64,000 bases of DNA from Candidatus Taenariivivens baikalensis (GTDB lineage Bacteria; Omnitrophota; Omnitrophia; Omnitrophales; Aquincolibacteriaceae), in contig SICL01000002.1 in the NCBI GenBank assembly GCA_009691445.1, positions 63 through 64,062 on the forward strand, read 5' to 3'. The translations under genes and the position numbers were made by a program. How positions within the stretch are numbered: the stretch's first letter is position 1; every line of letters starts with the position of its first letter. The notes beneath the pieces were generated by a model that was given only the letters and a program-made list of their open reading frames with translations, was not told the origin of the DNA and made no database searches. Shown here piece by piece: positions 8,213 through 56,252 of this stretch.

Positions 8213-8214
8213 GA

Positions 8215-31069: not shown

Positions 31070-31073
31070 AAAT

Positions 31074-32147: not shown

Positions 32148-32151
32148 GGGC

Positions 32152-33567: not shown

Positions 33568-33576
33568 TTTTTATCC

Positions 33577-34326: not shown

Positions 34327-35111
34327 GACTTCGTTCCTGCCAAGATGACGAATTTCATGTCGATGTAGCAGTCTTTGTTTTCAATGACCATGTTGTAATC
34401 TCGCTTGCCCTGCTCATCGAGGTCGATATGCATCTGGAAAATTTCATTCTTAACTTTTGCCGGAAGCCCGCTACTATCAAGCCAATTCCGAATGCTGGAG
34501 TGACGAGCCCAATAAATCTTCTTCTGGATTTTTTTGAACCCCGCTTTTTTCATGAGGTTAGTCAGATCCTCTTCCATAAAAGTGATCCGGTCTTCCTTCA
34601 GTTTAAACATTTCGGTGTAGAAAGTTTTTACGTGTTTTGTGGGAGGGACGCCTTCAGAGAAAACCATAATCCCATCTTTTTTGAGAACGCGGTAGCATTC
34701 TTTCATTGCGGCCTGGGTATGATCGATGATGTGGTGGAAGACCATCCGGGCAGTGATTTTATTAAACGTCTGATCCTTAAATTTCAGATCGTGCGCGTAC
34801 ATGCGCATCCAGGAAATATTTTTAAAAGCCGGATTTTCCGCGCGCTTCAGCATTTCTTCCGAAATATCCACACCAACGACATTTTTAACAAAGGGCGAAA
34901 CGGTGTGGGCAATGATTCCCGTCCCTGTACCGATGTCGAGGGCGTGGTCACTCTCATGAAACTGCCCGATGTTCAGAAAAGTATGCAGATAATCACCCTT
35001 GCTGGCCCACTCAAGATTATTGTATTTCTTGGCGCGTGTTGCCCAAAATTCAATCTCATCATTCGGTTTGGTTTTGGATTTTGCTTGTACGGCCTTGGAT
35101 TTAATTTTCAA
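34323..35111 (-). CDS. Class I SAM-dependent methyltransferase
   Basis: 262 aa. Motif I LDIGTGTGIIA and the post-I acidic residue VDISEEM. ATGA-type overlap with the downstream gene. Confidence 0.8.
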   Translation of the reverse strand: MKIKSKAVQAKSKTKPNDEIEFWATRAKKYNNLEWASKGDYLHTFLNIGQFHESDHALDIGTGTGIIAHTVSPFVKNVVGVDISEEMLKRAENPAFKNISWMRMYAHDLKFKDQTFNKITARMVFHHIIDHTQAAMKECYRVLKKDGIMVFSEGVPPTKHVKTFYTEMFKLKEDRITFMEEDLTNLMKKAGFKKIQKKIYWARHSSIRNWLDSSGLPAKVKNEIFQMHIDLDEQGKRDYNMVIENKDCYIDMKFVILAGTKS

Positions 35112-36600
35112 GAAGTTCCTCCTGTGGTGGCGGCGGTTTAGGAATAAATTTATTTTTAAAGACCTTAAGCAAATCCAGTTCTTTATTGAGTTTGATCAAG
35201 AAGGGCGAATAGATAAGTAAGAAAATACCAAATTGAAGCAAAACTTTCCACAGGTTTTGTTCTGAACCCGGGATCAGACGGTCAAGAGCAAACAGGAGTC
35301 CGGTCAAAAGAACAAATTTGATAAAAAGAAGAGCAAAATGTCCGATCGTTTCCCGACGGTTGAAAATGTAGGATGAAGCAATCCAGTAAGTGGTGGCGAA
35401 TTCAACAAATTGGACGATTGTCGTCGCAATCGAGACTCCGATAATGCCGGTATGTCCTTTAATGGCCAGGTAATTGGAAACGAAAGCCAGGCCGCACGCG
35501 ACAAGCATAATCGGTACCATGAACGCTTGTTTGCGGATGACGGCCATAAAATAATTGAAAGGATTAATCAGGGCAAGAAAGTAAGAGCCCAGGATCAGTG
35601 CTTTCATCGGGGCAATGCTCTCTAAAAAATCAGGAAGAATGATGCGGGAAAAATACGGCGCAAAGAACCAGACGCCCGCAATTAAAAGAGGCATGAGATC
35701 GGAAAACGCGAGTGAGGACTTCATGAGATATCCCTTAAGGGCATCGGCTTTTTCAGTCTCTCCGTACCGTTCATGAAAATTGGGCATCAGCACAACCCCG
35801 ACGGCAGTGGGAATGGTTCCGATATAGGTATAAGCCAGAATCGCGAGACTGTAGATGCCCAGTTCGCGAAGTCCCAAGAATTTTGCGATCATGATTTTAT
35901 CAATGCTCAGGAATAAGGTCCCAAGAAACCCGGTGATCATAAGCGGGAATCCATAACAAACCATTCCCCAAAGAATTTTCCAGTTCAAATCAAAGCGGAA
36001 ATGAAAGGAATAGTAGCAGCGGATACAGATAATATTGAAAACAAAACTCAAGCACATCGCCAACATAAAACCATACATGCGAAATTTATAAGACAAGATC
36101 GCGACGAGGATGCCATTTACAATCGATGAGAGAACCATTTGTTTTCCTGCAAGGGTAAACAGCTTATAACCCCGCAAAAAAGCGATACTCAGATTACTGA
36201 TACGCTGCAGGATAACCAGGCCCCCGATAAACAATAATCCGTAAAACATGACTTCGGAAAGCCGGGACTGGTAGACAAGCGCATAAACCAGCGCGCCTAA
36301 ACTAATCAGGGCCGCCGTAAGCAGGGAGAAACTAAAAATAATATTCTTCATTTGGTCGGCGGTCTTGAGATCCCCTTTTCCCCGGTAGTACGGGACTTCT
36401 CGGGAGATGGATTCGGAGACGCCGAAGGTGGAATAAGAGGAATAATTCAGAATCACTTGAAGAAGAGACCAGGCGCCCATTTGAGTCGGTCCCAGAAAGC
36501 GGCGGGTCAAAAGGCCCGCGATAAGCGTGATTAGCTGGGTGACAATGGAAAGCGCCAAGTAAATGCTCGCATCTTTAATGATTTCGTTTTTCTTGGTCAT
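35101..36600 (-). CDS. wzx: Wzx-type oligosaccharide flippase (polysaccharide biosynthesis protein, MOP superfamily)
   Basis: 499 aa with about 12-14 TM helices. The N-terminal region is typical of PST-family flippases. Confidence 0.75.
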   Translation of the reverse strand: MTKKNEIIKDASIYLALSIVTQLITLIAGLLTRRFLGPTQMGAWSLLQVILNYSSYSTFGVSESISREVPYYRGKGDLKTADQMKNIIFSFSLLTAALISLGALVYALVYQSRLSEVMFYGLLFIGGLVILQRISNLSIAFLRGYKLFTLAGKQMVLSSIVNGILVAILSYKFRMYGFMLAMCLSFVFNIICIRCYYSFHFRFDLNWKILWGMVCYGFPLMITGFLGTLFLSIDKIMIAKFLGLRELGIYSLAILAYTYIGTIPTAVGVVLMPNFHERYGETEKADALKGYLMKSSLAFSDLMPLLIAGVWFFAPYFSRIILPDFLESIAPMKALILGSYFLALINPFNYFMAVIRKQAFMVPIMLVACGLAFVSNYLAIKGHTGIIGVSIATTIVQFVEFATTYWIASSYIFNRRETIGHFALLFIKFVLLTGLLFALDRLIPGSEQNLWKVLLQFGIFLLIYSPFLIKLNKELDLLKVFKNKFIPKPPPPQEELLEN

Positions 36601-38501
36601 ATGATTGAGGCGAGCTCGCGGGGTGTTATTTTTAGGGACTTTTGGATAAAATTCGCAACCCGACCTGCTTGATCCGTACCCGATTTTCCAAGAAAGAATT
36701 CTATTTCTTCAGAAGGCAGGTTTTTCCAGGGGATTGTGTCTTTTTCATAAGGTTTGAGGCGGTTCAAGGCCTGCTTGATTTCGTTTTCATTTCTTGCGAC
36801 CTGAATGAAGTTTCTCTTTTCAAAATCAGAGATCCTCTCCCGGTTTTTATCCGATAAATCCATAAAAATAACGGGAAGCTGGCAGAGAACAGCTTCAATG
36901 ATGGTGGTGGACCAGGAAGAAAGAATCATTGCATCACACTGATGGATCAGGGTGATAATTTCTGATTTTGGATCGCTGACCACCCTGATTTTATTTTCAA
37001 TCTCATATTCTTTAAATAAACGCTTCCATGTTCCAAGGCCCATTGTATTGTGGGGCTTAAAGATGACTTCAAGTTCCCCTTTGAATTCCCTCAGAATCTT
37101 GAAAAAACTACGGGCGGCGGGTTCAACAATTTGTTGAAAGCTATCATCATGAATGCCGAGGTATCCGTGATGATCCGGAGTTTGTGGCGTAATGTAGGTA
37201 TTAGCGCAATAGAGAAGCTTTATTTTTGAAGAAAAGGATTTTTTAAGACGTTTTTTAAATTCCCGGATTAATTCATCATAGCGCGGTGTTCCGGTTACAA
37301 CGATTCCCTTGGGATTCCATCCTCGGCGAACATAAAAATCTTTTTCATATTGGGATTGAACGAGCGTGGAGGATTGGTGAAAGACCTGGCAATCCGTCGG
37401 TACTGCGAAATTAACGGCGAGATTGGCGTGCGACAGGCAATAGACCGGGATTTTCTTTCGTTTGGCAAAGGCGCCCAGGAATCCTCCCCGGAGAGCGTAA
37501 TCATCTTCAGTGAGAATTGCCTTTACCTTTGTCGCTTGAAAAACTTTTTCATATTCTTCGTATCGTTTGCCCAGTTGTTTCAGAAATGGATAAAAAGACG
37601 GAAGGACTAAATCAAGAATGAAAGGACTGAGGTTATCCTCCTTATAATGAAAGAATCCTGCGTCCGATGCAGACCGAAGGCCTGCAGATAGTTCCTGAAA
37701 AGCGGCGGAAGAGTCGTATTCAGCCGGAGTAACACCGTGAGATCGATAAGAGTCCGAAGTCATATAAGGAATGCGATTTTTTTGCGACCAGGAAAAAAGA
37801 TTGGCATTAAACGCACTGTCGTAAATACCCGTCGAAATGCCTTGTGACGAAAGAACCTGGAGAAGACGGCCTAAATGACGCAAAGAACCAATCGCCAGAA
37901 TATCCACATGTTTTGGAGGATGGAAAAAAGAAGCGTGAATTTTTGAAATCTGATTTTTGAATTTGGCGGAAAGTTCCGGTGGCACCGGATGGCCTCCTGA
38001 TTCTCCGGAGTTTATTGAGCTGGAATCAAGTTCAACCATTGGGAGAGCGGACTCTTTTGCTTTTTGCTGAAGCAAATAGTTGAGATAACTATTGCCGGAA
38101 AAATCAGGGTAAGTTTTAAAAAAAGGTTTAAACGTAATGACCGCGGCTGGAGATGCGCATTTCAAAATTATTTCTGAAAATAATAAATTTTTGACCGCCT
38201 GGCACAGTAAGTGTGAAAAGAAAAGATAGACGGTAGAGGCAAGATCAATGGTTTTAAAAACCGATCGCTCCCGGCAAAACTCAATCCATTTCGCCGCACG
38301 GCCGCAGCCCCAGGCATTGATTTCAGCCCACTGAGATTTTAAGGCGAAGTCATCAACCTTCCGGAAATTAATTTTTTGATTTCCCAAATAAGAATATATC
38401 TGGGGATTGTCACAAAAAATAAGAATATCACTGAGGCAGGGATAAGCCTCAGCCAATTTTTTATGCTGAATTTCATTGGATAATACGGCAACAGCCTTCA
38501 T
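36597..38501 (-). CDS. Large GT-B-like transferase, possibly TagF/Glyphos_transf-like polyol-phosphate (CDP-glycerol/ribitol) transferase
   Basis: 634 aa. The C-terminal half has KIKLLYCANTY...HHG and CDAMILSSWSTTIIEA. I judge these similar to TagF LYAPTFRD and SDxLITDYSS blocks. Function not firmly assignable. Confidence 0.4.
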   Translation of the reverse strand: MKAVAVLSNEIQHKKLAEAYPCLSDILIFCDNPQIYSYLGNQKINFRKVDDFALKSQWAEINAWGCGRAAKWIEFCRERSVFKTIDLASTVYLFFSHLLCQAVKNLLFSEIILKCASPAAVITFKPFFKTYPDFSGNSYLNYLLQQKAKESALPMVELDSSSINSGESGGHPVPPELSAKFKNQISKIHASFFHPPKHVDILAIGSLRHLGRLLQVLSSQGISTGIYDSAFNANLFSWSQKNRIPYMTSDSYRSHGVTPAEYDSSAAFQELSAGLRSASDAGFFHYKEDNLSPFILDLVLPSFYPFLKQLGKRYEEYEKVFQATKVKAILTEDDYALRGGFLGAFAKRKKIPVYCLSHANLAVNFAVPTDCQVFHQSSTLVQSQYEKDFYVRRGWNPKGIVVTGTPRYDELIREFKKRLKKSFSSKIKLLYCANTYITPQTPDHHGYLGIHDDSFQQIVEPAARSFFKILREFKGELEVIFKPHNTMGLGTWKRLFKEYEIENKIRVVSDPKSEIITLIHQCDAMILSSWSTTIIEAVLCQLPVIFMDLSDKNRERISDFEKRNFIQVARNENEIKQALNRLKPYEKDTIPWKNLPSEEIEFFLGKSGTDQAGRVANFIQKSLKITPRELASII

Positions 38502-38520
38502 AAGTCCTTAAAGATCAAGC

Positions 38521-39297
38521 TCAGGCGGGATGGGTTAATTTTTCAAAATAAGTTTTAAAAAGGCGGTCCTGCGGCATTTGAGAGCGAATGAGTTCAAGAT
38601 CCTGCGGCGTATCCACGCTGACCGTGGCGTGCGGAATGTGAACGGCTTTAATTTTGTATCCCTTTTCTAAAATTCTCAGGTATTCATTGAACTCAATGGT
38701 TTCAAGCTTCCCTTTCGTCCACGCCGCGTATTGCAGCAAAAAAGATTTACGGAATGGAACCAGATGGCAGACCTTGAGTAAAGGCGGATTCGGTGTCCGT
38801 GCATCCGAAGGAATATCTGAACGGGAAAAATACATCACTTCATCTTTTTCATTCAATACGGTTTTGATGACAGAGGTGATTCCCCGCTCAGCAAAAGGAG
38901 TCACTAAAAGAGCGACCGAGAGATCAGGATTTTGATAGAGCGCCGTAACCGCGGCATCAATATGTTCGGGATCGAGAAGGGCTTCATCCCCTTGAACATT
39001 GACAATGATATCCGCTTCGATTCCAGCAGCTGCTTCCGCAATTCGATCGGTGCCGGTTTGATGCCGGCTGTTTGTCATGATGGCCTTGCCGCCAAACTTT
39101 TGAACGGTTTCGAGAATCTCAGCACTGTCCGTTGCCACATAGACATCATGGAGAGTTTTAGCCATTTGACTTCTTCGAAGCACATGAACAATCATGGGAA
39201 GGCCGCAAATATCCGCCAAAGGTTTTTTTGGAAGGCGCGATGATTCGAGCCGGGCCGGAATAATGGCAACCGTTCTGGGAGTGGCGTGATTACTCAT
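38521..39297 (-). CDS. kdsB: 3-deoxy-manno-octulosonate cytidylyltransferase-like (CMP-Kdo synthetase family)
   Basis: 258 aa. VAIIPARLESSRLPKKPLADICGLPMIVHVL, NVQGDEALL and SVDTPQDLE align closely with E. coli KdsB blocks. This is a better fit than NeuA. Confidence 0.8.
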   Translation of the reverse strand: MSNHATPRTVAIIPARLESSRLPKKPLADICGLPMIVHVLRRSQMAKTLHDVYVATDSAEILETVQKFGGKAIMTNSRHQTGTDRIAEAAAGIEADIIVNVQGDEALLDPEHIDAAVTALYQNPDLSVALLVTPFAERGITSVIKTVLNEKDEVMYFSRSDIPSDARTPNPPLLKVCHLVPFRKSFLLQYAAWTKGKLETIEFNEYLRILEKGYKIKAVHIPHATVSVDTPQDLELIRSQMPQDRLFKTYFEKLTHPA

Positions 39298-40070
39298 TGA
39301 AATTTTTTAAAAGCCTGGTGAACGGTGCTGTATTCCCGGTAAAGGAGATTGGCATCCACTCCGTACGTGATAAATTTCAACCCTAAATTCAGAAGTTTTT
39401 TAATATCGTTTTGAGAATGGGCCACAAATCCTCCGGCGCATTTTCCCACAGCAGACACCTTCGCAATTCCCTGTTTTAAAGGTTTCATGACATCGGCGTG
39501 ATAGATGTCGCCCGGATGACCAAAAACGGCGGAGAGGTCATAGGCGCCGAAGTAAACGATATCTAAGTCTTCGATTTCGAGAATCTCGTCCAGGTTTTCA
39601 AATCCTTCTTTTGACTCAATAATAATGGAGCGGACAATATTTTGATTCGAATGCTTTACATAGTCGCCTGCATTTGTGCCGTTAAAAGAGCCTGCTTTGG
39701 TAAAGGGTGTGAATCCCCGCGTGCCTTTCGGAGAAAATTGGGTAGTGCGAATAAACTCCTTCACATCATTTGCATTCTGCATGTGAGGAACCATCAATCC
39801 TTCAGCCCCTTGATCGAGGGCTTGTTGAATCATCCAGGGCTCAGGGACCGGGAGGCGGACAATCGGTGCGCAGCCGTAGGCCTGACAGTGGCTGACATAG
39901 TCCGAAATCCGGTGAAGTTCAAAGGGGCCGTGTTCGAAGTCAATGATGACGAAATCAAGACCGGATTGCGCAATCGCATCAGTCACAAGCGAAGCGCCTA
40001 AGGTATTCCAGGTCCCCAGGATAGGATTTTTTTTCTGAATTTTATTTTTAAGCGTGAAGGGCATGTTCAT
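39294..40070 (-). CDS. HpcH/HpaI-family class II (metal-dependent) 2-keto-3-deoxy-acid aldolase
   Basis: 258 aa. ILGTWNTLGASLVTDAIAQSGLDFVIIDFEHGP is the family signature. Confidence 0.75.
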   Translation of the reverse strand: MNMPFTLKNKIQKKNPILGTWNTLGASLVTDAIAQSGLDFVIIDFEHGPFELHRISDYVSHCQAYGCAPIVRLPVPEPWMIQQALDQGAEGLMVPHMQNANDVKEFIRTTQFSPKGTRGFTPFTKAGSFNGTNAGDYVKHSNQNIVRSIIIESKEGFENLDEILEIEDLDIVYFGAYDLSAVFGHPGDIYHADVMKPLKQGIAKVSAVGKCAGGFVAHSQNDIKKLLNLGLKFITYGVDANLLYREYSTVHQAFKKFQ

Positions 40071-40836
40071 TTTCTACCTTGAGCTGGTTAAAGGATTCAA
40101 TGATGTGACAAGGCAGGTCTTTAAAATCCTCTCGGGTTCCGAGTCCGGTCAAGACACCGATATTACAGATGAGCCCCGCGTTTTCCCCCATCAGAATATC
40201 CACCGGATGATCCCCGATGACGGCCGTCTTTTCCCGGCGTGCCTTTGTTTTTACAAGAAGCCTTTCTACGGCTTCAGGTTCGGGTTTTGAATTCTGAATC
40301 TGATCGCCTCCCAGGACAGAGTGAAAATAGGGAGAAAGGCCAAACTGATTCAGAGTTTCCTGGGCGCGATTAGTCCGATCGCTTGTCGCAATGGAAAGCA
40401 GGATTCCGGCATCGTGAGCTTTCCTGACAAAATTTTCCACGCCCGGAAGTAATCGAACGAAATCACGGATGTGAGAAAGCGTTTTCTCATCCACTTCACG
40501 AAAAAGAGTTTCGATCTCCTGGACTGATGCCGCGGCGCCCATCTCCTTGAGTGTCTGAATGACGACTTGAACGATAAAACTCCGCGGTTTAATCCCGACC
40601 GGCCCTTCCCTTTTCATTTTGCCTGTGGATTCATCAATTCCCATGGCTTCAATCAAACGGGTGGAACGTTGTGAATCCGAGGTGTCCTTAAAGTATTTCT
40701 GAACAAGCAACTCGGTTCGCATGCGGATCATCGCGGTCCAGTAAAAATGGACATCAATGAGGGTTCCGTCTTTATCAAAAATAATAAGTTCCGGATCCTC
40801 CAGAAGAGTCTGGCCGGTGTCAAGCTTTAACGCTTT
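40048..40836 (-). CDS. HAD-superfamily hydrolase (phosphatase, HAD-IA-like)
   Basis: The start MKALKLDT... is chosen at 40836 to avoid overlap. Motif I IIFDKDGTLID and a C-terminal GDHPVDI motif. Confidence 0.75.
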   Translation of the reverse strand, partial: KALKLDTGQTLLEDPELIIFDKDGTLIDVHFYWTAMIRMRTELLVQKYFKDTSDSQRSTRLIEAMGIDESTGKMKREGPVGIKPRSFIVQVVIQTLKEMGAAASVQEIETLFREVDEKTLSHIRDFVRLLPGVENFVRKAHDAGILLSIATSDRTNRAQETLNQFGLSPYFHSVLGGDQIQNSKPEPEAVERLLVKTKARREKTAVIGDHPVDILMGENAGLICNIGVLTGLGTREDFKDLPCHIIESFNQLKVENEHALHA

Positions 40837-41833
40837 CATAAAATCCTTCGTGCACCAGTTCTTTTCCGATTTCCACGGCAGAGCGTATATTTTCGGCATT
40901 CGTATCAAAATCCGGTTTAATAAGGAATTCATTCACAATCTTCCGTGCATGAGTTCCTACAGAAATTCCGTTATAACGAACCCCGCACATCCGGGCAAGC
41001 TTAGAGGTTTGATTATTGGTTCCTCCGGAAACGAGGATTTTAAGGCTCTTGAAATTTTTCCGGATAATATCCGTCGTCGCAATGGCCTGAAGCGTGGTAT
41101 TAAAATCGTCTTTTCCCCCGCTCATTGGAACCCCGTCGGCCTGAATAATGGTTCTGTCTTTGGCAATGGATAAGGCTTCCTTGATACGCTGCGTCAGGCT
41201 GTGTGTGGATAAGTAAGCTCGGTCGAGGCACATCGAGATGAAGTTATTCGGTTGAATCTCATTCACCGTTTTCCATTCCTCAATAATTTGGTCATTGGAC
41301 GGGACGGCGGCATGAAGTTCAATATTTTCCGCGCCGGCTTCAAGGCATTCGGGAAGAATTTTTTTGAGCGACTTATCATCATGTTCGTAACGGATGGCAT
41401 CAATTTTTTTCGGACAGGCTTCTTCACAAGCGCCGCATCCGATACAAAGATCCCGGATGATCACCAGATTGAGCGGAATCGCATCCGTCGGGCAAACCGG
41501 AATACATTTATCGCATTTAATGCAGGTATCAATGATGTAAGCTTTGCGGACATGATGATCGCCCGGCATCCCGACGCTGACGGTGATAAAAGGCCGGTTA
41601 GGGATTTCAATATTCAGTTTTTTGGACCATTCGTACGCGGTATTGATTCCCGAAACACAGGATTGAACAATATGCGGCTTGGCAGAAACATCAAAACCGT
41701 TGGCACCGGCAAGCGTATAAACAACCGCAAGCTTGCGGACTTCCTCGGCGTTTTCGTTCCCCGCTCCGCAGACCAGTTTAAAATAACGGTTTTCATCCAA
41801 AAGCTTTCTCATTTCCTCGAAACGCGCATTCAT
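40820..41833 (-). CDS. 4Fe-4S dicluster-domain protein of unknown function
   Basis: 337 aa. Central CIKCDKCIPVCP and CIGCGACEEACP ferredoxin motifs, flanked by an N-domain (KLVCGAGNE) and a C-domain (KILVSGGTNN) that look like split halves of a barrel. Confidence 0.5.
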   Translation of the reverse strand: MNARFEEMRKLLDENRYFKLVCGAGNENAEEVRKLAVVYTLAGANGFDVSAKPHIVQSCVSGINTAYEWSKKLNIEIPNRPFITVSVGMPGDHHVRKAYIIDTCIKCDKCIPVCPTDAIPLNLVIIRDLCIGCGACEEACPKKIDAIRYEHDDKSLKKILPECLEAGAENIELHAAVPSNDQIIEEWKTVNEIQPNNFISMCLDRAYLSTHSLTQRIKEALSIAKDRTIIQADGVPMSGGKDDFNTTLQAIATTDIIRKNFKSLKILVSGGTNNQTSKLARMCGVRYNGISVGTHARKIVNEFLIKPDFDTNAENIRSAVEIGKELVHEGFYESVKA

Positions 41834-41834
41834 T

Positions 41835-43481
41835 TCATTTCTCCTTCAGTTTTTGAGAATTATTTTTAGAAAATTCCGGGGAATAAATGGAACTTTGAGT
41901 GACCGAGTAAGTGGTCGGAGTGACGCTGATGATCGATGGGGCCAGCGGAATTTTTTTATAAAGATTTAAAATATGTTCCATCTCTTTGTGGCGAGGGTCC
42001 TGGTAATCATAGCCATCAAATCCGGCCAAAAGAATCCGGGATGCTCCGCTGCTGATCCCAAGTGCAAACACGTAAGCGGCAACCAGCATGAGAGGGATCA
42101 CGCAGTCATTTTCCTCGGCTAGAAAAGTATTTTCACTCGTTCCCATTCCATAATCAAAAACTTTCAAATTTTTAAATTTATGTTTTACAATTTCAGGCAC
42201 GGCGTTCATGGGTGCGATGATCGGACGGTTTAATGATTGGTATTTATCGGAATCCATGAGTAATCGGGTTTTGTGGCAGGTGGCATAAGCCGTAATATGT
42301 TCAGGAGCAATATACGGATTAATGTTCAGAGAAACCACTACCGGGTCATTTTCTTTGATCAAGCGGACAACATCCTCTTTATATCTTTCCAGCTGCGGCC
42401 CTGATCCCAGAATAAGTAAGTCACGGTTTTGAGCCCATCCGGATGCGGACCACGAACCTTTCAGAGGCTGATGAAGATTATTCAGGGCTTTTTCCAGATC
42501 CTTATCTTTAAAAGAAGTGGCGCCGCTGTTTTTTAAAGATTCCAATGCCGCAAGAATCTTTTCCGGCTGGTAATCAGGTTTTGAAAGAATCTCCTGAATG
42601 TAAGTCGGGTGGATTCCGTATTTGCCGGAAAGATAATAAAGCAGATTATTTCCCCAGCCGTAGCGTTTTTTCATTTTTTCAAAATCGTCGATCACCAGGG
42701 AGAAAAGGGCGTCGGGATAAAAGGTTTGAATGCCCCGGCTCGTGAGTTCCAGGATAAGAAGTTCGGTGCAGGCATTCCCCGCTCCGCGTCCCATGCCAAG
42801 GATGGTGCCGTCAATCCACGCAGCCCCTGTTTCGATGGCCGTTAAAGAGTTCTCAAGTGCGTTGCCCATATTATCGTGAGTGTGAATCCCCACCGGTCCG
42901 TCCCAATTTTTTTGAATGGTCTGGATGATTTCCCGTGTTTGTTTGGGATCAAGACTTCCCAAACTGTCCGCAATATAAAAGACATCAATCATGTTTTGAT
43001 TTTTTATCCATCCGGAATATTCGCGGAGCTGATGAGGGGGGATATGCGAAATATGCATTAAATTTAAACCGATCGCATAACCCAATTTTTTTAAAGCGCT
43101 CATCAAAGCGGCACATTCTGTCAGCTGATTCGGATTGACGGCAATTCGCACAAGTTCGACGCGGGAATTTACCGCGGGCTGGAATACAAGATCAACCGCT
43201 TGTTCAATCCCCCCGGGGTATTGAAGAAATTCTTTGGCATTGATCATGACCCCAAGCTTCAGGTCTTCCGGGACATCGAGAGTGGAAATAAAATAATCCG
43301 TCGTGTAGGCAAATGGCCCCAGGAAACCTTCCTGAGGAAGTGAACGAAAACCCAATTCAACCGTCCGAATACCCGCGGTATGAACGGCCTGAAGGTAGCG
43401 GGACACAAGATCCGCAGGAAAATCCCACTGATTGTAGTAGCCGCCGTCGCGGAGCGTGCAATCAAGAATTCTTAAATCCAT
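41835..43481 (-). CDS. Fusion protein: N-terminal DRE-TIM metallolyase (HMGL-like aldolase/synthase) domain plus C-terminal MptE/DUF115-like domain
   Basis: N-terminal LDCTLRDGGYYNQWDF...TVELGFR is the DRE-TIM signature. The C-terminal ~230 aa (LILGSGPQLE...ILLAGFDGY) resembles Maf/DUF115 (MptE-like) domains. Start either MDL at 43481 or MIQ at 43526. Confidence 0.55.
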   Translation of the reverse strand: MDLRILDCTLRDGGYYNQWDFPADLVSRYLQAVHTAGIRTVELGFRSLPQEGFLGPFAYTTDYFISTLDVPEDLKLGVMINAKEFLQYPGGIEQAVDLVFQPAVNSRVELVRIAVNPNQLTECAALMSALKKLGYAIGLNLMHISHIPPHQLREYSGWIKNQNMIDVFYIADSLGSLDPKQTREIIQTIQKNWDGPVGIHTHDNMGNALENSLTAIETGAAWIDGTILGMGRGAGNACTELLILELTSRGIQTFYPDALFSLVIDDFEKMKKRYGWGNNLLYYLSGKYGIHPTYIQEILSKPDYQPEKILAALESLKNSGATSFKDKDLEKALNNLHQPLKGSWSASGWAQNRDLLILGSGPQLERYKEDVVRLIKENDPVVVSLNINPYIAPEHITAYATCHKTRLLMDSDKYQSLNRPIIAPMNAVPEIVKHKFKNLKVFDYGMGTSENTFLAEENDCVIPLMLVAAYVFALGISSGASRILLAGFDGYDYQDPRHKEMEHILNLYKKIPLAPSIISVTPTTYSVTQSSIYSPEFSKNNSQKLKEK

Positions 43482-43482
43482 T

Positions 43483-44532
43483 TCAGATTTCACGCGAACC
43501 TCTGCTAATCTTTGCGTTTGGATCACTGGTTAAGTAGTTATTTTCATAATCTTCTGCCATTTGTTCCAGAATTTTACGGTAAAAATCCGAAACTTGGTAT
43601 TCCTGATATCGGTTATCAACGATTTTGCGCTGTTGTACCCAGTAAGTTGACGGAAGGATTCGCGGGATATTCATGTTTTTGAACATCGTGGCTGTTCGGG
43701 ATGTTTCACAGATTCCTAATTTTTTTTGTACAGTTGTCCAGTCATCGTTTGGGGTTACGACAAATCTTTCAAAAGGGATGATCATCACCTTGTTTTGGAA
43801 TGAGGGCCGTTGAGTATAAAATTCCTTAGCTTGATGAAGAAGATGATGCGTCACAAGAATTGCTTGTTCAAAGGGATTGGCCGCTAAATAATCATCGGCA
43901 ATTTCAAGGGCAAACCAAGGTATTATTTTATCTTTTACTAATAAAACCTGCTGAAATTCTCTAGGATCATTACCGAGGCGTTTATTCCAGTTGCCTTTAG
44001 TCCAGTTTTCCACAAGCCAAAATGGATGTCTGATCGGTACAACCATGAGTTTAAGACGATGATGGAAGGTGTCAAACATAAGCTCAGAGATTCCGAAAAG
44101 ATAATGGGTCATCAGCACTAAAATGGGTTTTTCTAATTTTATTTTATCAACAATAGCTTCTCCTTCTGTTTTGTCTTCGAGCCTCAAACGATATTTTTCC
44201 TCCTGAAGATTTGCTTGTATGCTGCTTAGGTCAGAAGCTCTAAGGTTAATGTGTCTTCCTATCATAAGGTGGTAAAGATCCATATCAGCATAGGTTTTGA
44301 GGAATGTCGCTGCCACAGATCGATTCATGAATCCGTAATGGTCCGCCATGCACAAGTAGTCATAATTATAATTTGCGATCCATGCCTCACATCGATCCAA
44401 GCTGCTGATAAGTGGTGCTAGCAGGGATTTTCCGGAGCCTGAAAATCCATCAATAACAACAATATCCTCGGCAAGTTGCAGAGGGCGAATCAAGACTGCT
44501 TCACTTAGGGGATTTGAAATCTTGGGACTCAT
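43483..44532 (-). CDS. P-loop NTPase-fold protein (Walker A GFSGSGKS; kinase- or sulfotransferase-like)
   Basis: 349 aa. VVIDGFSGSGKSLLAPL Walker A resembles APS-kinase/zeta-type kinases. No further family assignment possible. Confidence 0.4.
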   Translation of the reverse strand: MSPKISNPLSEAVLIRPLQLAEDIVVIDGFSGSGKSLLAPLISSLDRCEAWIANYNYDYLCMADHYGFMNRSVAATFLKTYADMDLYHLMIGRHINLRASDLSSIQANLQEEKYRLRLEDKTEGEAIVDKIKLEKPILVLMTHYLFGISELMFDTFHHRLKLMVVPIRHPFWLVENWTKGNWNKRLGNDPREFQQVLLVKDKIIPWFALEIADDYLAANPFEQAILVTHHLLHQAKEFYTQRPSFQNKVMIIPFERFVVTPNDDWTTVQKKLGICETSRTATMFKNMNIPRILPSTYWVQQRKIVDNRYQEYQVSDFYRKILEQMAEDYENNYLTSDPNAKISRGSREI

Positions 44533-44533
44533 G

Positions 44534-45352
44534 TTAACTTTTTTGTAGTGTTGACAGATTTTTTGATGGATTCAATTTAAATTTTTCCCATTGAGCCAAG
44601 TCAAATCCTGATTCGATCAAGGATTGGCGGGATTTTTCCAGACCGTCTCCGATAAAGTTAAATAGATGGGCCGTGGCCACGGCATCGACTCGTGGATCTT
44701 TTAACCCCTGGGCAAGGTGATGATAGTTACCGGCACCGCCCGCAAGGATCACCGGAATGGTTAGAGTCTCCGGGATTTGATCCAATAAGCCTAAGTCGTA
44801 ACCCTGTCCTGTTCCATCCCGATGAATCGAATTCAAATAAAGTTCGCCAATAGGATAGTTTGATATTTTTTGGAGCCAGGTACTCAGGGAATCATTGACC
44901 GGCTTACTTCCATTTTCGACCATGATTCGGTATCCGGACTCATGGAGGGAAGCATCAACGGAGGCAATAATGCATTGCTGTCCAAATTCTACAGCCAGTT
45001 GGTTGAGAAGGATGGGGTTTTCAAAGATCGGAGTGTTGATAACGATCTTATCTGCGCCAGACCGGAGAAGTTGTTTAGCTTGCTCAACGGAGCGGATTCC
45101 TCCCCCTGCGGCTATCGGCATAAAGCAACCCTCCGTGAGCGACTTGAGATGTTCACAAAAAAGATCAAATTGGCGAGCGTCTCGTGAAACATCAAGGACG
45201 ATCAATTCATCGATCGAAAATGCCACTCGATAAAAGTTATAATTCTTTTGCAGCCACCGTAGATCACCCACGCGCTGCAGACGAAAATTACGGCTTAACA
45301 TGAATGAGCCGTGATCAAATAAGAGTGTAAAAATAACACGTTTTTTAAGCAT
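44534..45352 (-). CDS. HisF-like cyclase subunit of a glycan-modifying imidazole-glycerol-phosphate-synthase-like complex (WbuY/PseudoHisF type)
   Basis: The start MLKKRVIFTLLFDHG is chosen at 45352. IAAGGGIRSVEQAKQLLRSGADKIVINT is a HisF-type (beta/alpha)8 phosphate-binding motif. It sits next to a HisH-like gene and a WbpG-like amidotransferase. Confidence 0.8.
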   Translation of the reverse strand: MLKKRVIFTLLFDHGSFMLSRNFRLQRVGDLRWLQKNYNFYRVAFSIDELIVLDVSRDARQFDLFCEHLKSLTEGCFMPIAAGGGIRSVEQAKQLLRSGADKIVINTPIFENPILLNQLAVEFGQQCIIASVDASLHESGYRIMVENGSKPVNDSLSTWLQKISNYPIGELYLNSIHRDGTGQGYDLGLLDQIPETLTIPVILAGGAGNYHHLAQGLKDPRVDAVATAHLFNFIGDGLEKSRQSLIESGFDLAQWEKFKLNPSKNLSTLQKS

Positions 45353-45354
45353 GG

Positions 45355-45981
45355 TTAAATCTCTAGAAAATTTCCTAATAAAATCAAACCGTTCGTTTGG
45401 CTTTTTTCCGGATGAAATTGAGTGCCGCATATATTGTTCACCTCAAATGCAGCGAGGAACTCAGTGCCATAGTTGCAAGTCCCCCAATTCCCTTTCAGTT
45501 CTGCGCCAAGCATGCGATAGGAGTGAACAAAGTAAAAATCAGCGGCAGGAGGCAATGAGCGAAATAATCCTGAGCATTTGGCAAAATGAACCGTATTGAA
45601 TCCCACATGAGGGATTTTATTTCGGTTGAGTTCTTGCGGTGAAAATTTATCAACGGCATTCGAAATCAATCCAAGGCCTTTCGTCTTACCATCTTCTGAA
45701 CCGGAAGCACCCAAAAGCTGCATGCCTAGACAGATTCCTAATATTTTTGCACCGCGAACTTTAACAGCCTCTAAAATCGCCTGTTCAAGACGCGTGCGTC
45801 TCAAGGTTTCCATTGCTTTTCTAAAGGAGCCTACGCCCGGTAAAATTAAGAAATTCGCCTCGCGAACTTGATCAGGATCGCTGCTTAAGAGGGATTGTCT
45901 TCCCAAGTAGCGGACCGCACTCTGAACTGACCAAAGATTGCCCATTCCATAATCGATCGTAACAATCTTTTTTTGTGACAT
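45355..45981 (-). CDS. HisH-like class I glutamine amidotransferase subunit
   Basis: 208 aa. IVTIDYGMGNLWSVQSA...ILPGVGSF plus the catalytic Cys region GICLGMQLL. Confidence 0.85.
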   Translation of the reverse strand: MSQKKIVTIDYGMGNLWSVQSAVRYLGRQSLLSSDPDQVREANFLILPGVGSFRKAMETLRRTRLEQAILEAVKVRGAKILGICLGMQLLGASGSEDGKTKGLGLISNAVDKFSPQELNRNKIPHVGFNTVHFAKCSGLFRSLPPAADFYFVHSYRMLGAELKGNWGTCNYGTEFLAAFEVNNICGTQFHPEKSQTNGLILLGNFLEI

Positions 45982-47126
45982 TAGAGGGTTGTAAAAACCG
46001 GGATCCAGCGCCCATTTTCTTTTTTAAATAAATTTTTATTTGCCCATTGATCGAGCACAGCATCAAATTCATTTTGAGTCATCTGATAATAATCCAGATA
46101 GGTTTCAATGAATTCTTCAGGATAATGTCCATCATAAAGACGAACGAGATTGATTGCTTGGTCACGAGTCATCGCGCCGCGACGGATTTCGATTCCTGCA
46201 TCTTGGGTGGCTCTTCCAAAACCAAATTTAAGATACATCATATAAGTGTGAAGGGCATATAAAGCCTGATCATTCTGGGCAAAATTTGTAAACGTGCCGG
46301 TATTATTTTCAGTAGCCTCCTGCAAACCACAATGTTCTTTCGCCGTCAAATAGTTCTGATAAGGGTCCCAGGATTCAAAATAAGACCAGTGGGTGATTTT
46401 TAGATCCTTGCCTTTCAGTTCCCGGTCGGATGGGAATGAAAAGAAGTACAATTCAGCGTCGCTTAGGCCGCACGAGTTAAGTATCCTTTCATGGCCGCCC
46501 TCGAGATAAATCCTTTTCATGTAAGCAATGTCATAAACGGGATGATTTTTCGATTCCGAAGATCCGCCATATTCCACCTCACCATCCTCTCCATAAAACA
46601 GAAGCGGGATATTTAGATTCACCGCGAGACGGACGACGGCGGCTTGCACCGCCACTAACCAGCCATAATAGGGGAATCCTTTCTCGATAAATCCCTGACG
46701 ATTCAGGATGCGCATAACTTTTGGATTGGGATTGATCTGAATATGGTTATGCCCGCTCTCGATATAATTTCGAAGATTTTTATTCCCCAAATCGAGCGAC
46801 AAAGCAGGGGTCACAGTAATTGCCAAAGGATTCATTCCATGGTTATGCTTGAGCTGATATGAAACATAAGAGCCATCTTTTCCTCCGCTGACAGGGACGA
46901 CACAATCAAAAGTTCCTGATGAAGATTTGTACTGATTGAGGATTTCAGTCAGCTCATTTCTCCGCGAATCCCAATTAAGATTCCTTTTTTCCTCCATCCA
47001 TTGGCAGGCATTGCACCATCCCCTGTCATCAAAGGTAATGCGCGGACGGGTTGACATGTTGAGACAGTTTTTGCACCAAAAAACTTTACTGCTGGAATGA
47101 GTCATAAACTTTTCCTGATTAAGCAT
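45981..47126 (-). CDS. N-acetyl sugar amidotransferase (WbpG/PseA/LegA-like, PP-loop ATP pyrophosphatase)
   Basis: 381 aa. N-terminal CKNCLNMSTRPRITFDDRGWCNACQW zinc-ribbon and PP-loop VPVSGGKDGS. This is the hallmark of acetamidino-forming amidotransferases. Confidence 0.85.
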   Translation of the reverse strand: MLNQEKFMTHSSSKVFWCKNCLNMSTRPRITFDDRGWCNACQWMEEKRNLNWDSRRNELTEILNQYKSSSGTFDCVVPVSGGKDGSYVSYQLKHNHGMNPLAITVTPALSLDLGNKNLRNYIESGHNHIQINPNPKVMRILNRQGFIEKGFPYYGWLVAVQAAVVRLAVNLNIPLLFYGEDGEVEYGGSSESKNHPVYDIAYMKRIYLEGGHERILNSCGLSDAELYFFSFPSDRELKGKDLKITHWSYFESWDPYQNYLTAKEHCGLQEATENNTGTFTNFAQNDQALYALHTYMMYLKFGFGRATQDAGIEIRRGAMTRDQAINLVRLYDGHYPEEFIETYLDYYQMTQNEFDAVLDQWANKNLFKKENGRWIPVFTTL

Positions 47127-47147
47127 AATTTTAAAAGAGGTTCAGTG

Positions 47148-47966
47148 TTACCAAACCGTTAATCCCCCATCAACAATAAGGTTGTGCCCTGTGACATAAC
47201 TTGAGGCACCGGAAGCAAGATAGATAAGAGCACCCACCATTTCTTGAGGATGAGCCATTCGCCCTAGAGGAACACGGTCGGAATATTTCTTTTGAAACGT
47301 TTTATTTTGCCCGCTAAAGACTCCTCCAGGTGTAAGCGTATTGACGCGAATTTTATGAGGAGCCAAGTGGGTTGACAAATATTTTGTTAGAGCAATCACG
47401 CCGCCCTTTGAGGCAGAGTACACGGCGGGATTGTTAATCTCTTGATTGAGATAAAACGACCCTTGATAGGTTCGCGGATCATGTGACGAAAGGCCATAAA
47501 TGGACGCCGTTTGTATAATTGAGCCGCCTTTTTCTTGCTTTATCATTTGGCTACTGACGGCCTGCGCGACGAGGAACATTGCATCCAGATTGATCGCCAT
47601 AATTTCCCGCCATGTTTCTAGAGAGTAGCGTTCAAATTTCTCAAAAAACGCATGGGCGTCTTTTGATTTTCCGGCGGCATTATTATGGAGGATGTGAACG
47701 GTTTTAAAGGTTTTAAGGATTTGTCGGAGCATTTCGTTTACATTTTGCGGTTGTGTAATGTCGCAGCCCACGCCTAAAGCTTTTATTTTATATTTTTGAT
47801 TCAATTTTTTTGCTAGAGAAACCGCCTCTTTTTCGCGGATATCCACAATCGCCACATGAGATCCGCGGGCAGCCAAGGCTTCACAGAAATGCTTCCCTAA
47901 GATCCCGCAGCCGCCAGTGACAATGGAAGTTTTCCCTTGAAGGCTAAACAGGTCCTTAAAACTCAT
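47148..47966 (-). CDS. Short-chain dehydrogenase/reductase (PtmA-like)
   Basis: The start MSFKDLFSLQGKTSIVTGGCGILG is chosen at 47966. It has the classic SDR TGxxxGxG and YxxxK. Its position matches ptmA of the Campylobacter legionaminic acid locus. Confidence 0.75.
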   Translation of the reverse strand: MSFKDLFSLQGKTSIVTGGCGILGKHFCEALAARGSHVAIVDIREKEAVSLAKKLNQKYKIKALGVGCDITQPQNVNEMLRQILKTFKTVHILHNNAAGKSKDAHAFFEKFERYSLETWREIMAINLDAMFLVAQAVSSQMIKQEKGGSIIQTASIYGLSSHDPRTYQGSFYLNQEINNPAVYSASKGGVIALTKYLSTHLAPHKIRVNTLTPGGVFSGQNKTFQKKYSDRVPLGRMAHPQEMVGALIYLASGASSYVTGHNLIVDGGLTVW

Positions 47967-48690
47967 GGTAATTCCCCTGGTTTTGATGCTGACGATCCAT
48001 GAGAAGTTTGACCACTTCAAAATCCAGATCATGATCAATATCCACGGAACGCTCAGGCGGCATTTCGTAAAGCAATGTGTCGGAATAAAAAATAGCAGGA
48101 TTTTCAATAAAGCGATTCCGTTTCCAGACATAAATTGACGCATTCATGTCGTAACATGCTGGTGAATCTTGCCGGCGGACAACCGGTGTCGGAGTATTTT
48201 TGGAAAGACGGACAAAGCCCTCCGAATTATTTTCTACCAGATTAAAATAGGGCGAATGCCGGGATCGTGCCGCAGTGATGACGTTAGAAACTTTGCGCGA
48301 GTCAAAGAGCCGAACCGCATGATGGATATCCTGAATCGTCCTCAAAGGGGATGTGGCATCCAGATCAACGATCGTTTCGTAAGCATACTTCTTGATTTTT
48401 TCAATTTCAAGTACCGCGTGCCGGATTGCAGGAAGTTTGGATGCCGTATCAGTCGCCATTTCTTCGGGACGCTTCAGGAAGTAATCCGCTCCCCATTCGC
48501 GGCTAACCTTGAGAATATCATCTGAATCACTACTGACAACAACGGCATCAAAAAGTTTTGAATCTTTAGCTTGTTGAAGTGTGTGAGCGATCAAGGGTTT
48601 CCCTTGAATCAGCATAATGTTTTTATTTTTGAGGCCTTTGGAACCGCCTCGTGCACAGATCGTGCAAATTCGCTTTATCGGTGTATCCAC
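47956..48690 (-). CDS. CMP-nonulosonate (acylneuraminate/legionaminate) cytidylyltransferase, NeuA/LegF/PtmB family
   Basis: 244 aa. ICARGGSKGLKNKN is the NeuA-family signature. Confidence 0.85.
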   Translation of the reverse strand: MDTPIKRICTICARGGSKGLKNKNIMLIQGKPLIAHTLQQAKDSKLFDAVVVSSDSDDILKVSREWGADYFLKRPEEMATDTASKLPAIRHAVLEIEKIKKYAYETIVDLDATSPLRTIQDIHHAVRLFDSRKVSNVITAARSRHSPYFNLVENNSEGFVRLSKNTPTPVVRRQDSPACYDMNASIYVWKRNRFIENPAIFYSDTLLYEMPPERSVDIDHDLDFEVVKLLMDRQHQNQGNYHEF

Positions 48691-49586
48691 TTGAAGTCCT
48701 TTGCTGCTTCTTCAGCCGCTTCAATCATTTTTACGACATCTATTCCCTCTTCAAAAGAGCATAGCGATTCTGTGTTTCCGGAGAGCACGGCTTCGTGCTG
48801 CCGAAGATAGGTGTGATTTTTATCCATGGGATACTGCTCAATCTGATCATCGGTCTCAAGTGTATTCTGGACTAAATCGGCTTTGAACGTCTGATTGTCT
48901 GTTTGGATGATAATCTCACGCCGGGATTTTCTATCCAGGTAGTTCATTTGTAAAGAGACCAAAGGACATCGCCTTGTTTTTAGCAGGAGAGAATAAGCAT
49001 CGTCACTATCTAGGGTGTTATCGCTGAAGCGCCCTCCGACTGCCGTTAAAGCCTGCCAACCCCCAAGAAGCCAGTTCAAATAGTCCAGTTCATGACTTAA
49101 ATCCCGAAGGACACCCCCGCCGCCTGCTCGGGTTGCGGAGTATCCCAATCGCCCATCAGGCCTCCAGGTGGAAATATGTTTTCCGACGTAGGCTTGAACT
49201 TGAATAATATTTTTAGAGGCGGCAAGGATCATCTTGAGTTTTTGAAGAATGGGATGAAAGCGCAGGTTATAGGCTGTATAAATATAAGTGATCGAATGCT
49301 TTGGGATTGTCACCCTATTGGCAAAAAGGGGCTTTTCGATTAAAACCTTTCCCCTAAAGGACGTATCCGCTAAGGTTTTGAATGAATCAAAATGAGAGCG
49401 GGTATCATTTGCGATCACGACATAATCCGGATTAAAATTCTTGAGACACTCACCGAGCGAAGTAAATAAAGAATCATCATCAGAGTGGTGACGACTGATC
49501 ACTGCGACGTGACAGCCAAGTTCTTTAAGGCAGTTTGCATGACGCACTCCAATGGATCCGTATCCAACCACAGCGGCTTTGATCAT
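48675..49586 (-). CDS. Gfo/Idh/MocA-family NAD(P) oxidoreductase (PtmF-like)
   Basis: 303 aa. N-terminal Rossmann AVVGYGSIGVRH and a Gfo/Idh/MocA C-terminal domain. Confidence 0.75.
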   Translation of the reverse strand: MIKAAVVGYGSIGVRHANCLKELGCHVAVISRHHSDDDSLFTSLGECLKNFNPDYVVIANDTRSHFDSFKTLADTSFRGKVLIEKPLFANRVTIPKHSITYIYTAYNLRFHPILQKLKMILAASKNIIQVQAYVGKHISTWRPDGRLGYSATRAGGGGVLRDLSHELDYLNWLLGGWQALTAVGGRFSDNTLDSDDAYSLLLKTRRCPLVSLQMNYLDRKSRREIIIQTDNQTFKADLVQNTLETDDQIEQYPMDKNHTYLRQHEAVLSGNTESLCSFEEGIDVVKMIEAAEEAAKDFKWIHR

Positions 49587-49589
49587 CGA

Positions 49590-56249: not shown

Positions 56250-56252
56250 GAG

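Follow-up and report, generated by a model that had tools for sequence, protein, structure and literature searches.

What is made by a set of genes in which an enzyme annotated as a 3-deoxy-manno-octulosonate (Kdo) cytidylyltransferase is accompanied by two aldolases, a phosphatase, and an iron-sulfur (Fe-S) protein? The question is raised by five genes (38521-43526, minus strand) of Candidatus Taenariivivens baikalensis, located on contig SICL01000002.1 of GenBank assembly GCA_009691445.1. The window, i.e. the whole stretch of 64,000 nucleotides analyzed here (positions 63 to 64,062 of the contig), is one long minus-strand glycan operon in a Candidatus Omnitrophota metagenome-assembled genome. 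The reading put forward here, for which we see about an even chance, is that the five genes form one module making a 2-keto-3-deoxy (ulosonic) sugar acid other than Kdo, which is activated with cytidine monophosphate (CMP) for a surface glycan. In gene order, the module consists of the following members:

41835..43526, minus strand: DRE-TIM (HMGL-like) aldolase fused to an MptE/Maf-fold domain (PF00682, 101.8 bits; start according to NCBI at 43493)
40820..41833, minus strand: LdpA-like Fe-S protein (Fer4 families, LdpA_C, weak DUF561), a larger conserved domain carrying two inserted CxxCxxCxxxCP motifs
40048..40839, minus strand: HAD-IA phosphatase, phosphoglycolate-phosphatase/PpaX-like and not KdsC-like (PF00702/PF13419, E 1e-25)
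39294..40070, minus strand: HpcH/HpaI-type class II pyruvate aldolase (PF03328, E 2e-31, 109.7 bits vs 25), translationally coupled to the cytidylyltransferase gene
38521..39297, minus strand: KdsB-like (PRK13368-type) cytidylyltransferase, last gene of the module (CTP_transf_3, PF02348, E 7e-47; NCBI MSR76814)

The public names of the module parts at NCBI are "3-deoxy-manno-octulosonate cytidylyltransferase", "hypothetical protein", "HAD family hydrolase", "4Fe-4S dicluster domain-containing protein", and "aldolase". A preliminary description, made from the sequence alone, had named six open reading frames (ORFs), these five and the adjoining 43483..44532; their coordinates are confirmed, family searches bear out the domain calls, and all six lie on the minus strand. 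The HAD ORF can be extended to 40932, its probable true start being 40839 (the public gene call is 263 amino acids (aa) long). The coupling of the HpcH and KdsB-like genes proposed at that time can be read directly in the sequence, where the HpcH stop and the KdsB-like start overlap in ATGA. According to the ORF list, all genes between approximately 29150 and 60984 share the minus strand and either overlap or are separated by short gaps. A promoter/terminator scan of 34000-49000 yielded no signal above the shuffled expectation and does not inform on internal transcription units. Family searches characterize the full 64 kb as a surface-glycan region which encodes, besides glycosyltransferases and a GT9 heptosyltransferase, MBOAT proteins, a carbamoyltransferase, an O-antigen ligase, and a Wzx flippase.

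The first step towards an answer is whether the five genes belong together. Conservation of the neighborhood across taxa, which the preliminary description had left to be checked, was followed in two scans: a genome scan anchored on the DRE-TIM fusion alone (one genome per species, 80 loci) and a metagenome scan anchored on the LdpA-like Fe-S protein alone (80 further loci, hereafter LdpA-anchored). Twenty-two of the metagenome loci are adequately flanked (at least 2.5 kb upstream and at least 3 kb downstream), and in 19 of them the fusion aldolase, HAD, HpcH, and CTP_transf_3 genes are all found within 6 kb of the LdpA-like gene. The KdsB-like gene is thus embedded in a non-canonical aldolase/HAD/Fe-S/DRE-TIM set, as had been supposed, and this linkage is conserved in many aquatic bacteria. 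The exact order of the window occurs in about 30 metagenome contigs and permuted orders in about a dozen; HpcH is present in 49/80 and HAD in 59/80 of the LdpA-anchored loci. The full arrangement is also found in genomes of Omnitrophota, Elusimicrobia, and Nitrosomonadales (L005, L007, L010, L014), with cytidylyltransferases 58-63% identical to that of the window. It can be stated with high confidence that the conserved module is real and its arrangement far beyond chance.

The genome scan reveals a smaller unit. A KdsB-like gene is detected by tblastn in 51/80 genome loci, in nearly all cases immediately 3' of the fusion gene, a CTP_transf_3 cluster is present in 71/80, and a HAD protein of about 220 aa in 58/80. 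This three-gene cassette, in the order fusion aldolase, KdsB-like enzyme, HAD, is carried by Marinobacter, Pseudomonas, Halomonas, Shewanella, Idiomarina, Psychrobacter, Pelagibacteraceae, Methylobacillus, Magnetospirillum, a cyanobacterium, and two Bacillaceae genomes. Its carriers span many phyla, and it lies in their glycan loci. At the center of the system stand the DRE-TIM/MptE-fold fusion, the KdsB-like enzyme, and HAD, which in many genomes form a cassette of their own; in one variant, HpcH and the Fe-S protein are added to them. In Brenneria, the cassette is preceded by four ORFs whose sizes and cluster membership (not family-searched) are those of rmlB/A/D/C. When the Brenneria cassette was compared with Escherichia coli genomes in a distant DNA search, nothing was matched, and hence no link to an O-antigen of known structure was obtained.

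What could such a cassette produce? The pathways for Kdo, N-acetylneuraminic acid (Neu5Ac), and 2-keto-3-deoxynonulosonic acid (Kdn) share one pattern of enzymes, in which an aldolase or synthase is combined with a phosphatase of the HAD type and a CTP_transf_3 enzyme. Since the enzyme trio of the cassette matches this signature, it is proposed to make a 2-keto-3-deoxy sugar acid and to activate it with CMP. In the first step, a metal-dependent pyruvate aldolase would join pyruvate and an aldehyde, probably a phosphorylated aldose, to a 4-hydroxy-2-oxo acid. For this carbon-carbon bond formation, the leading candidate is the DRE-TIM domain, as it is the sole aldolase of the minimal cassette.

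The properties of the DRE-TIM domain are in line with such a role. Its R26-D27 pair and its metal site H215-x-H217 are invariant in 20 homologs, and its structural model is confident (predicted local distance difference test score, pLDDT, 89). Foldseek matches of the model comprise 3dxi, 1nvm, 4lrs, and 4jn6, the best being 3dxi and pyruvate aldolases of the DmpG/BphI type; the closest relatives of the domain are pyruvate aldolases, not acyl-CoA synthases. With DmpG/BphI, as well as with the HpaI/GarL/RhmA relatives of the second aldolase, the window proteins share the folds and the metal- and pyruvate-binding residues, and the known enzymes reversibly join pyruvate and aldehydes to 4-hydroxy-2-oxo acids. 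The known enzymes, however, are catabolic, whereas the window proteins are part of a biosynthetic glycan operon and score far under the equivalog cutoffs (for the DRE-TIM domain, 93.4 vs 286 on the 4-hydroxy-2-oxovalerate aldolase TIGR03217, which is missed). DmpG moreover works with an acetaldehyde dehydrogenase partner; no gene for such a DmpF-type protein was found in the window or the conserved neighborhood. The closest solved structure to the DRE-TIM domain is BVU_2661 of Bacteroides vulgatus (PDB 3dxi, a 'putative aldolase' from structural genomics; 33% identity, Foldseek E 5e-23), which likely belongs to the same fusion family, the N-terminal domain alone having been solved.

More than 6,900 homologs, about 540 aa long, make up the fusion family. 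In the window protein, the C-terminal part (residues ~352-563, window 41838-42473) covers about 210 residues without a Pfam match. It shows an MptE/Maf/sialyltransferase-like fold, as indicated by structural similarity and by the presence of the G-x-G-P-S loop of MptE/Maf (DUF115, PF01973). This domain may either phosphorylate the acceptor, consecutively to the aldolase, or transfer the finished CMP-sugar. A few family members are fused to the LdpA-like Fe-S domain: natural fusions of about 885 aa, combining the DRE-TIM/MptE-fold protein with the LdpA-like protein, were found in P0097, P0122, and L127 (8399-11056), implying that the two proteins are functionally linked.

The five-gene variant contains a second aldolase of an unrelated fold. 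The top NCBIfam matches of the HpcH protein are HpaI, GarL (153 bits), and RhmA, and it is neither CitE nor a phosphoenolpyruvate (PEP) mutase, two identities that would have spoken against a pyruvate aldolase; no specific equivalog is reached (HpaI about 178 bits vs 369). The residues D44-x-E46-H47, R72, E152, and D178, which presumably correspond to H45/R70/E149/D175 of HpaI, are conserved to at least 95% in 46 module homologs. The LdpA-like protein misses the LdpA model NF045992 (135.5 bits vs a cutoff of 450); architecture alone is common to both, and the context is a glycan operon. In an alignment of its homologs, both cluster motifs and many invariant non-cluster residues are retained. 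A PDB sequence search with this protein matched solved structures in the ferredoxin part only. It is proposed to be a redox tailoring enzyme. HpcH/HpaI and the LdpA-like protein might serve to produce or tailor an acceptor aldehyde of an unusual kind, or else introduce a redox modification into the product, which is the weakest step of the scheme; either role would match the distinct pocket of the cytidylyltransferase in this variant (see below).

In the later steps, the HAD-IA protein would remove a phosphate, in parallel to KdsC, NANP, and Kdn-9-P phosphatase. The NCBIfam PpaX and PGP models match under their cutoffs; IA subfamilies are matched, and the HAD-IIIA model TIGR01662 is missed (34.2 vs 44.6). 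The KdsB-like enzyme, a proposed CMP-ulosonate synthetase to judge by its family and conserved catalytic residues, would then couple the acid to CMP from cytidine triphosphate (CTP). Finally, the GT-B-like protein encoded at 36597-38501 would transfer the sugar, and Wzx would flip the product.

In the open-access literature searched, no description of either the module or the cassette was found, in agreement with the earlier impression that the arrangement was a new one. To our knowledge, all characterized 2-keto-3-deoxy sugar acids of bacterial surfaces (Kdo, sialic, legionaminic, and pseudaminic acid, Kdn) are derived from PEP-dependent synthases of the KdsA/NeuB type. Module and core cassette may, somewhat short of an even chance in our estimation, represent an unrecognized pathway family for one or more new CMP-ulosonic acids, formed from pyruvate via class II aldolases and not via KdsA/NeuB-type PEP-dependent synthases, with the five-gene variant adding an Fe-S-dependent tailoring. 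If true, a class of acidic sugars would occur on bacterial surfaces in many phyla, including the Pelagibacteraceae as an abundant marine group and cultured Marinobacter, Pseudomonas, Halomonas, Shewanella, and Bacillaceae, and would escape present-day glycan analysis and annotation, the activating enzyme being labeled CMP-Kdo synthetase. An aldolase-based route with its own cytidylyltransferase branch would add new monosaccharide(s) to bacterial glycobiology and correct a systematic mis-annotation, as the CMP-Kdo synthetase label is applied even in Bacillaceae. It would also give a function to the "aldolase catalytic domain-containing protein" of about 540 aa, to non-cyanobacterial LdpA-like proteins, and to TIGR04326/TIGR04396 proteins. 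As the three-gene cassette is found in easily grown bacteria, for example Marinobacter nauticus DSM 50418, Methylobacillus flagellatus, and Rossellomorea aquimaris, the hypothesis is directly testable.

Three points weigh against a non-Kdo sugar acid as the product. Two aldolases and an Fe-S protein exceed the needs of a simple condensation of pyruvate and an aldose. DRE-TIM enzymes also perform Claisen condensations with acetyl-CoA, so that the product could be a branched hydroxy-acid instead of a sugar acid. Finally, the KdsB-like enzyme passes the kdsB equivalog cutoff, albeit narrowly (TIGR00466, 161.2 vs 155.2), and is 37-39% identical to true CMP-Kdo synthetases, which keeps Kdo among the possible substrates.

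The last of these points underlies the alternative that survives best, although we deem it unlikely: the KdsB-like enzyme would be a genuine CMP-Kdo synthetase, KpsU-like and dedicated to a polysaccharide, with the module either supplying Kdo by a KdsA-independent pyruvate-aldolase route or accompanying a Kdo-containing polysaccharide. Besides TIGR00466, the cutoffs of PRK05450.1-5 and, barely, PRK13368 (255.7 vs 255) are passed; the equivalog PRK05450.1-1 is missed (184.5 vs 281). The top PDB match, and best solved match, is the capsule-specific KpsU of E. coli (1gq9), and the insertion found in LPS-type (lipopolysaccharide-type) KdsB is absent from both. The residues catalyzing the reaction with CTP and metal (R10, S13, R15, K19, Q96-G-D98-E99, R155, R204, and D225 in KpsU numbering) are all conserved, being kept in 94-100% of the module enzymes. 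The organism furthermore probably makes Kdo, as LPS-type genes, among them the GT9 heptosyltransferase and the O-antigen ligase, are present in the window. The Kdo pathway and KpsU also resemble the proposed route in their overall logic, with a homologous KdsB/KpsU-type cytidylyltransferase acting last, a HAD phosphatase before activation, and presumably a 2-keto-3-deoxy acid in a surface glycan as the product.

A closer comparison of the cytidylyltransferases speaks against Kdo. The window enzyme and 34 module-linked homologs (35 sequences) were set against four solved KdsB/KpsU sequences. The window enzyme is 51-65% identical to the module-linked homologs and 37-39% to solved KdsB/KpsU, whereas KdsB and KpsU are 47% alike. 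Seven positions invariant in the four solved sequences are consistently replaced, among them H172A, G174H, Y176V, L200N, Q202Y, and G223S, each of these six changes being fixed in 83-100% of the 35 module enzymes. By these sequence comparisons, the module cytidylyltransferases form a group apart from the four solved KdsB/KpsU sequences. The enzymes of the three-gene cassettes carry another set of replacements at the same positions. The substituted positions lie largely within the C-terminal domain, and it is the C-terminal domain of KdsB that binds Kdo (PMC3149649). The cytidylyltransferase of the Methylobacillus cassette reaches 273 bits on PRK13368, which suggests that the cassette-linked enzymes are what this NCBI subfamily describes.

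The gene content points in the same direction. Supplying Kdo would require neither two aldolases nor an Fe-S protein, and a related cassette is found in the two Bacillaceae genomes, in which LPS synthesis is not expected. In contrast to the Kdo pathway, KdsA, with its PEP-dependent DAHP-synthase fold, and the arabinose-5-phosphate isomerase KdsD are not part of the module: no ORF of such size in the 64-kb window matches DAHP_synth_1 or SIS, as the preliminary description had already noted for the two enzymes. Instead, pyruvate-type class II aldolases of two unrelated folds would form the bond. The HAD protein is of type IA and KdsC of type IIIA, the Fe-S protein and the MptE/Maf-fold domain have no Kdo counterpart, and the residues of the sugar domain of the cytidylyltransferase are changed.

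Less probable still, and in our view rather doubtful, is a product that is not a sugar. The product of the module would be a small acid of the 2-oxo or 2-hydroxy type (resembling glycerate, lactate, or malate, or branched via a Claisen-type DRE-TIM enzyme), which, once nucleotide-activated, would be linked via a phosphodiester or as another non-glycosidic substituent. Such logic resembles the CDP-threonine (cytidine-diphosphate-threonine) route proposed for the type A flagellin glycans of Clostridioides difficile and the b-type ones of Pseudomonas aeruginosa, in which a TagF-like phosphotransferase and a methyltransferase are combined with a cytidylyltransferase and a HAD protein (PMC11833859). 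Both systems (CD0240-0244 in C. difficile, PA1088-1091 in P. aeruginosa) share with the present one a compact cassette in which a large transferase is combined with a HAD-family protein and a cytidylyltransferase, as well as an unusual acidic group on a surface glycan. The window contains HAD and a weakly TagF-like GT-B protein, plus a methyltransferase and a CDP-alcohol phosphatidyltransferase downstream, and there are acetyl-CoA-dependent synthases among the DRE-TIM enzymes. Since some related loci carry 2-hydroxyacid dehydrogenases, GAPDH-like, or YdiJ-like enzymes beside the module, a non-sugar acid substituent stays a live alternative. The cytidylyltransferase, however, is of the KdsB type, and characterized enzymes of this type form CMP-ulosonates, not CDP-alcohols. 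The CDP-alcohol transferase occurs in 0/160 related loci and the methyltransferase shows one weak partial match, so neither travels with the module; the Glyphos_transf match of the GT-B-like protein is marginal (E 7e-4), and the nearest DRE-TIM relatives are the pyruvate aldolases named above, not acyl-CoA synthases. The CDP-threonine route, as described, also differs in its enzyme families, in the phosphodiester-linked amino acid proposed for it, and in that no aldolases or Fe-S protein are described for it (PMC11833859). PA1089/PA1090 of P. aeruginosa were considered as homologs of the aldolase and cytidylyltransferase pair and rejected; they are homologs of CD0241/CD0242 of the CDP-threonine model (PMC11833859).

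Additional enzymes accompany the module in several loci. Directly 5' of it, L143 (4297-8378) and L158 (4186-8267) encode a GAPDH/erythrose-4-P-dehydrogenase-like protein, a PGDH-like 2-hydroxyacid dehydrogenase, a second HAD, a PseF-like cytidylyltransferase of 228 aa, and a second HpcH. In L096 (5473-8382), a YdiJ-like FAD/Fe-S dehydrogenase of 969 aa is found there instead. These upstream dehydrogenase genes hint at a second, linked pathway built on 2-oxo/2-hydroxy acids.

The remaining alternative arises from the genes upstream of the module, which are missing from the preliminary description together with a second cytidylyltransferase gene among them:

44534-57263, minus strand: complete legionaminic-acid-type pathway, upstream of the module in the same operon-like run
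56253-57263, minus strand: LegB
55074-56249, minus strand: LegC
53914-55077, minus strand: NeuC
51289-52362, minus strand: NeuB
50663-51352, minus strand: NeuD/PglD-type acetyltransferase
47956..48690, minus strand: PseF/LegF-type cytidylyltransferase, not a module member (CTP_transf_3, E 7e-22; NCBI MSR76824, 'acylneuraminate cytidylyltransferase family protein')

The same region also encodes a formyltransferase, a PIG-L-like deacetylase, PtmE-, PtmF-, and PtmA-like proteins, and a WbuX/HisH/WbuZ amidotransferase trio, which suggests an N-formyl- and/or acetamidino-modified nonulosonic acid in this Omnitrophota bacterium. A CTP_transf_3 gene located 3' of a set like this would ordinarily be taken for its CMP-nonulosonate synthetase gene. 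The ORF at 47956-48690 is partly masked by an over-long SDR ORF. Its product scores 131 bits on PseF and at most 51 bits on KdsB families, is 19% identical to the KdsB-like protein, and lies in what we take to be the place of PtmB in the Campylobacter locus. With this separate gene, the legionaminic-acid pathway is complete without the KdsB-like gene, and the KdsB-like enzyme is ruled out as its LegF.

That the KdsB-like enzyme activates the upstream legionaminic-acid derivative, with the other four genes only decorating this nonulosonic acid, is thus highly improbable, even though the module directly follows the full LegB/LegC/NeuC/NeuB/PtmE/PtmF/PtmA set and WbuX/HisH/WbuZ, and CTP_transf_3 includes CMP-Kdo and CMP-nonulosonate synthetases alike: the PseF-like gene occupies the canonical PtmB position, and only its existence excludes the idea, about 90% of related loci have no NeuB near the module (NeuB within 10 kb in 10/80 genome and 7/80 metagenome loci), and the KdsB-like protein reaches no more than 47 bits on PseF.

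The proposed non-Kdo ulosonic acid route nevertheless has features in common with the pathways for nonulosonic acids (Neu5Ac, legionaminic acid, pseudaminic acid, Kdn), i.e. condensation with a three-carbon keto-acid, an optional dephosphorylation, CMP activation, and a dedicated transferase. The C-terminal domain of the fusion protein shares its fold with Maf and GT42 sialyltransferases, which use CMP-nonulosonates. Unlike these pathways, the module has no NeuB-type synthase and usually no NeuB nearby, and its cytidylyltransferase belongs to the KdsB branch and not to NeuA/PseF.

If the module delivers a CMP-activated sugar acid, which protein transfers it? Two genes follow the cytidylyltransferase:

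36597..38501, minus strand: GT-B-like 'surface carbohydrate biosynthesis' protein of 634 aa, 19 bp 3' of the cytidylyltransferase gene (weak Glycos_transf_1, Epimerase_2, and Glyphos_transf matches)
35101..36600, minus strand: Wzx-type flippase, immediately 3' of the GT-B-like gene (Polysacc_synt, E 1e-12)

In 17/27 module loci, a protein of 470-650 aa is encoded directly after the cytidylyltransferase, nine of them belonging to the c11 family, the commonest one. Its representative scores 464 bits on the uncharacterized "surface carbohydrate biosynthesis protein" family TIGR04326 and aligns, as a distant relative, with the 634-aa protein in hhalign at a probability of 86-88%. The latter reaches 40 bits on TIGR04396, and a PDB sequence search with it returned no match. 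The 634-aa protein is a candidate transferase for the module product. A TagF-like neighbor had initially been suggested to incorporate the sugar; the recurrence of a large GT-B-like protein after the cytidylyltransferase fits incorporation into a glycan, but the TagF similarity is marginal, and a relationship to the TIGR04396/TIGR04326 proteins describes it better. Located 3' of Wzx (29150-35111, minus strand) are a class I methyltransferase, the CDP-alcohol phosphatidyltransferase, MBOAT and AlgX-like SGNH proteins, and a PMT_2 glycosyltransferase; the MBOAT, AlgX-like, and PMT_2 genes, too, are found in 0/160 related loci.

The sixth ORF of the preliminary description borders the module at its 5' side:

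43483..44532, minus strand: accessory protein, probably a divergent member of the sulfotransferase family, no Pfam match of its own, GxGKS and VRHP motifs

It had been counted as a Walker-A kinase-like part of the gene set. A word-index search gave five homologs, and the resulting orphan look is an artefact of that search: an exhaustive profile search retrieved a family of 1,491 cluster representatives. Among 42 sampled relatives, Sulfotransfer_3 (PF13469) is matched in 22 (best E 7e-5) and Sulfotransfer_1 (PF00685) in 8, and the family profile matches the sulfotransferases of CurM and olefin synthase (OLS) as well as TPST1 at the VRHP and FE..V..P motifs (E 0.001-0.006). Judged by these similarities, the product is probably a divergent sulfotransferase-family protein and not a kinase. 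It accompanies the module in 0/80 genome and 2/80 metagenome loci (L096, L127). Being sulfotransferase-like and occasional, it lends no support to the kinase/phosphatase cycle once considered, and is best read as an optional decoration enzyme outside the module core. Homologs occur in other glycan settings. In three short contigs, P0002 is neighbored by a Bac_transf gene and one for a transketolase subunit. The distant homolog P0004 (L001, 1-20996) belongs to another glycan locus, in which a PtmE/F/A-like triad is accompanied by 2-hydroxyacid dehydrogenases, a DHQ-synthase-like gene, and two CTP_transf_3 genes, one of them with a fused cupin.

Further observations concern the remainder of the window. 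Split transketolase-like subunits are encoded among its glycan genes (25895-27624, plus strand) and in L002 (747-1673). A B12-binding radical SAM protein of 712 aa (57618-59756, minus strand), of the KedN5 C-methyltransferase type with 212 bits, below cutoff, lies inside the glycan operon, and a B12-radical-SAM protein is also found near the module in L088. In an O-antigen-type region, adjoining the O-antigen ligase, the carbamoyltransferase is followed by small SxtJ-like and DUF5989 proteins (7796-10032, minus strand), a trio familiar from saxitoxin clusters.

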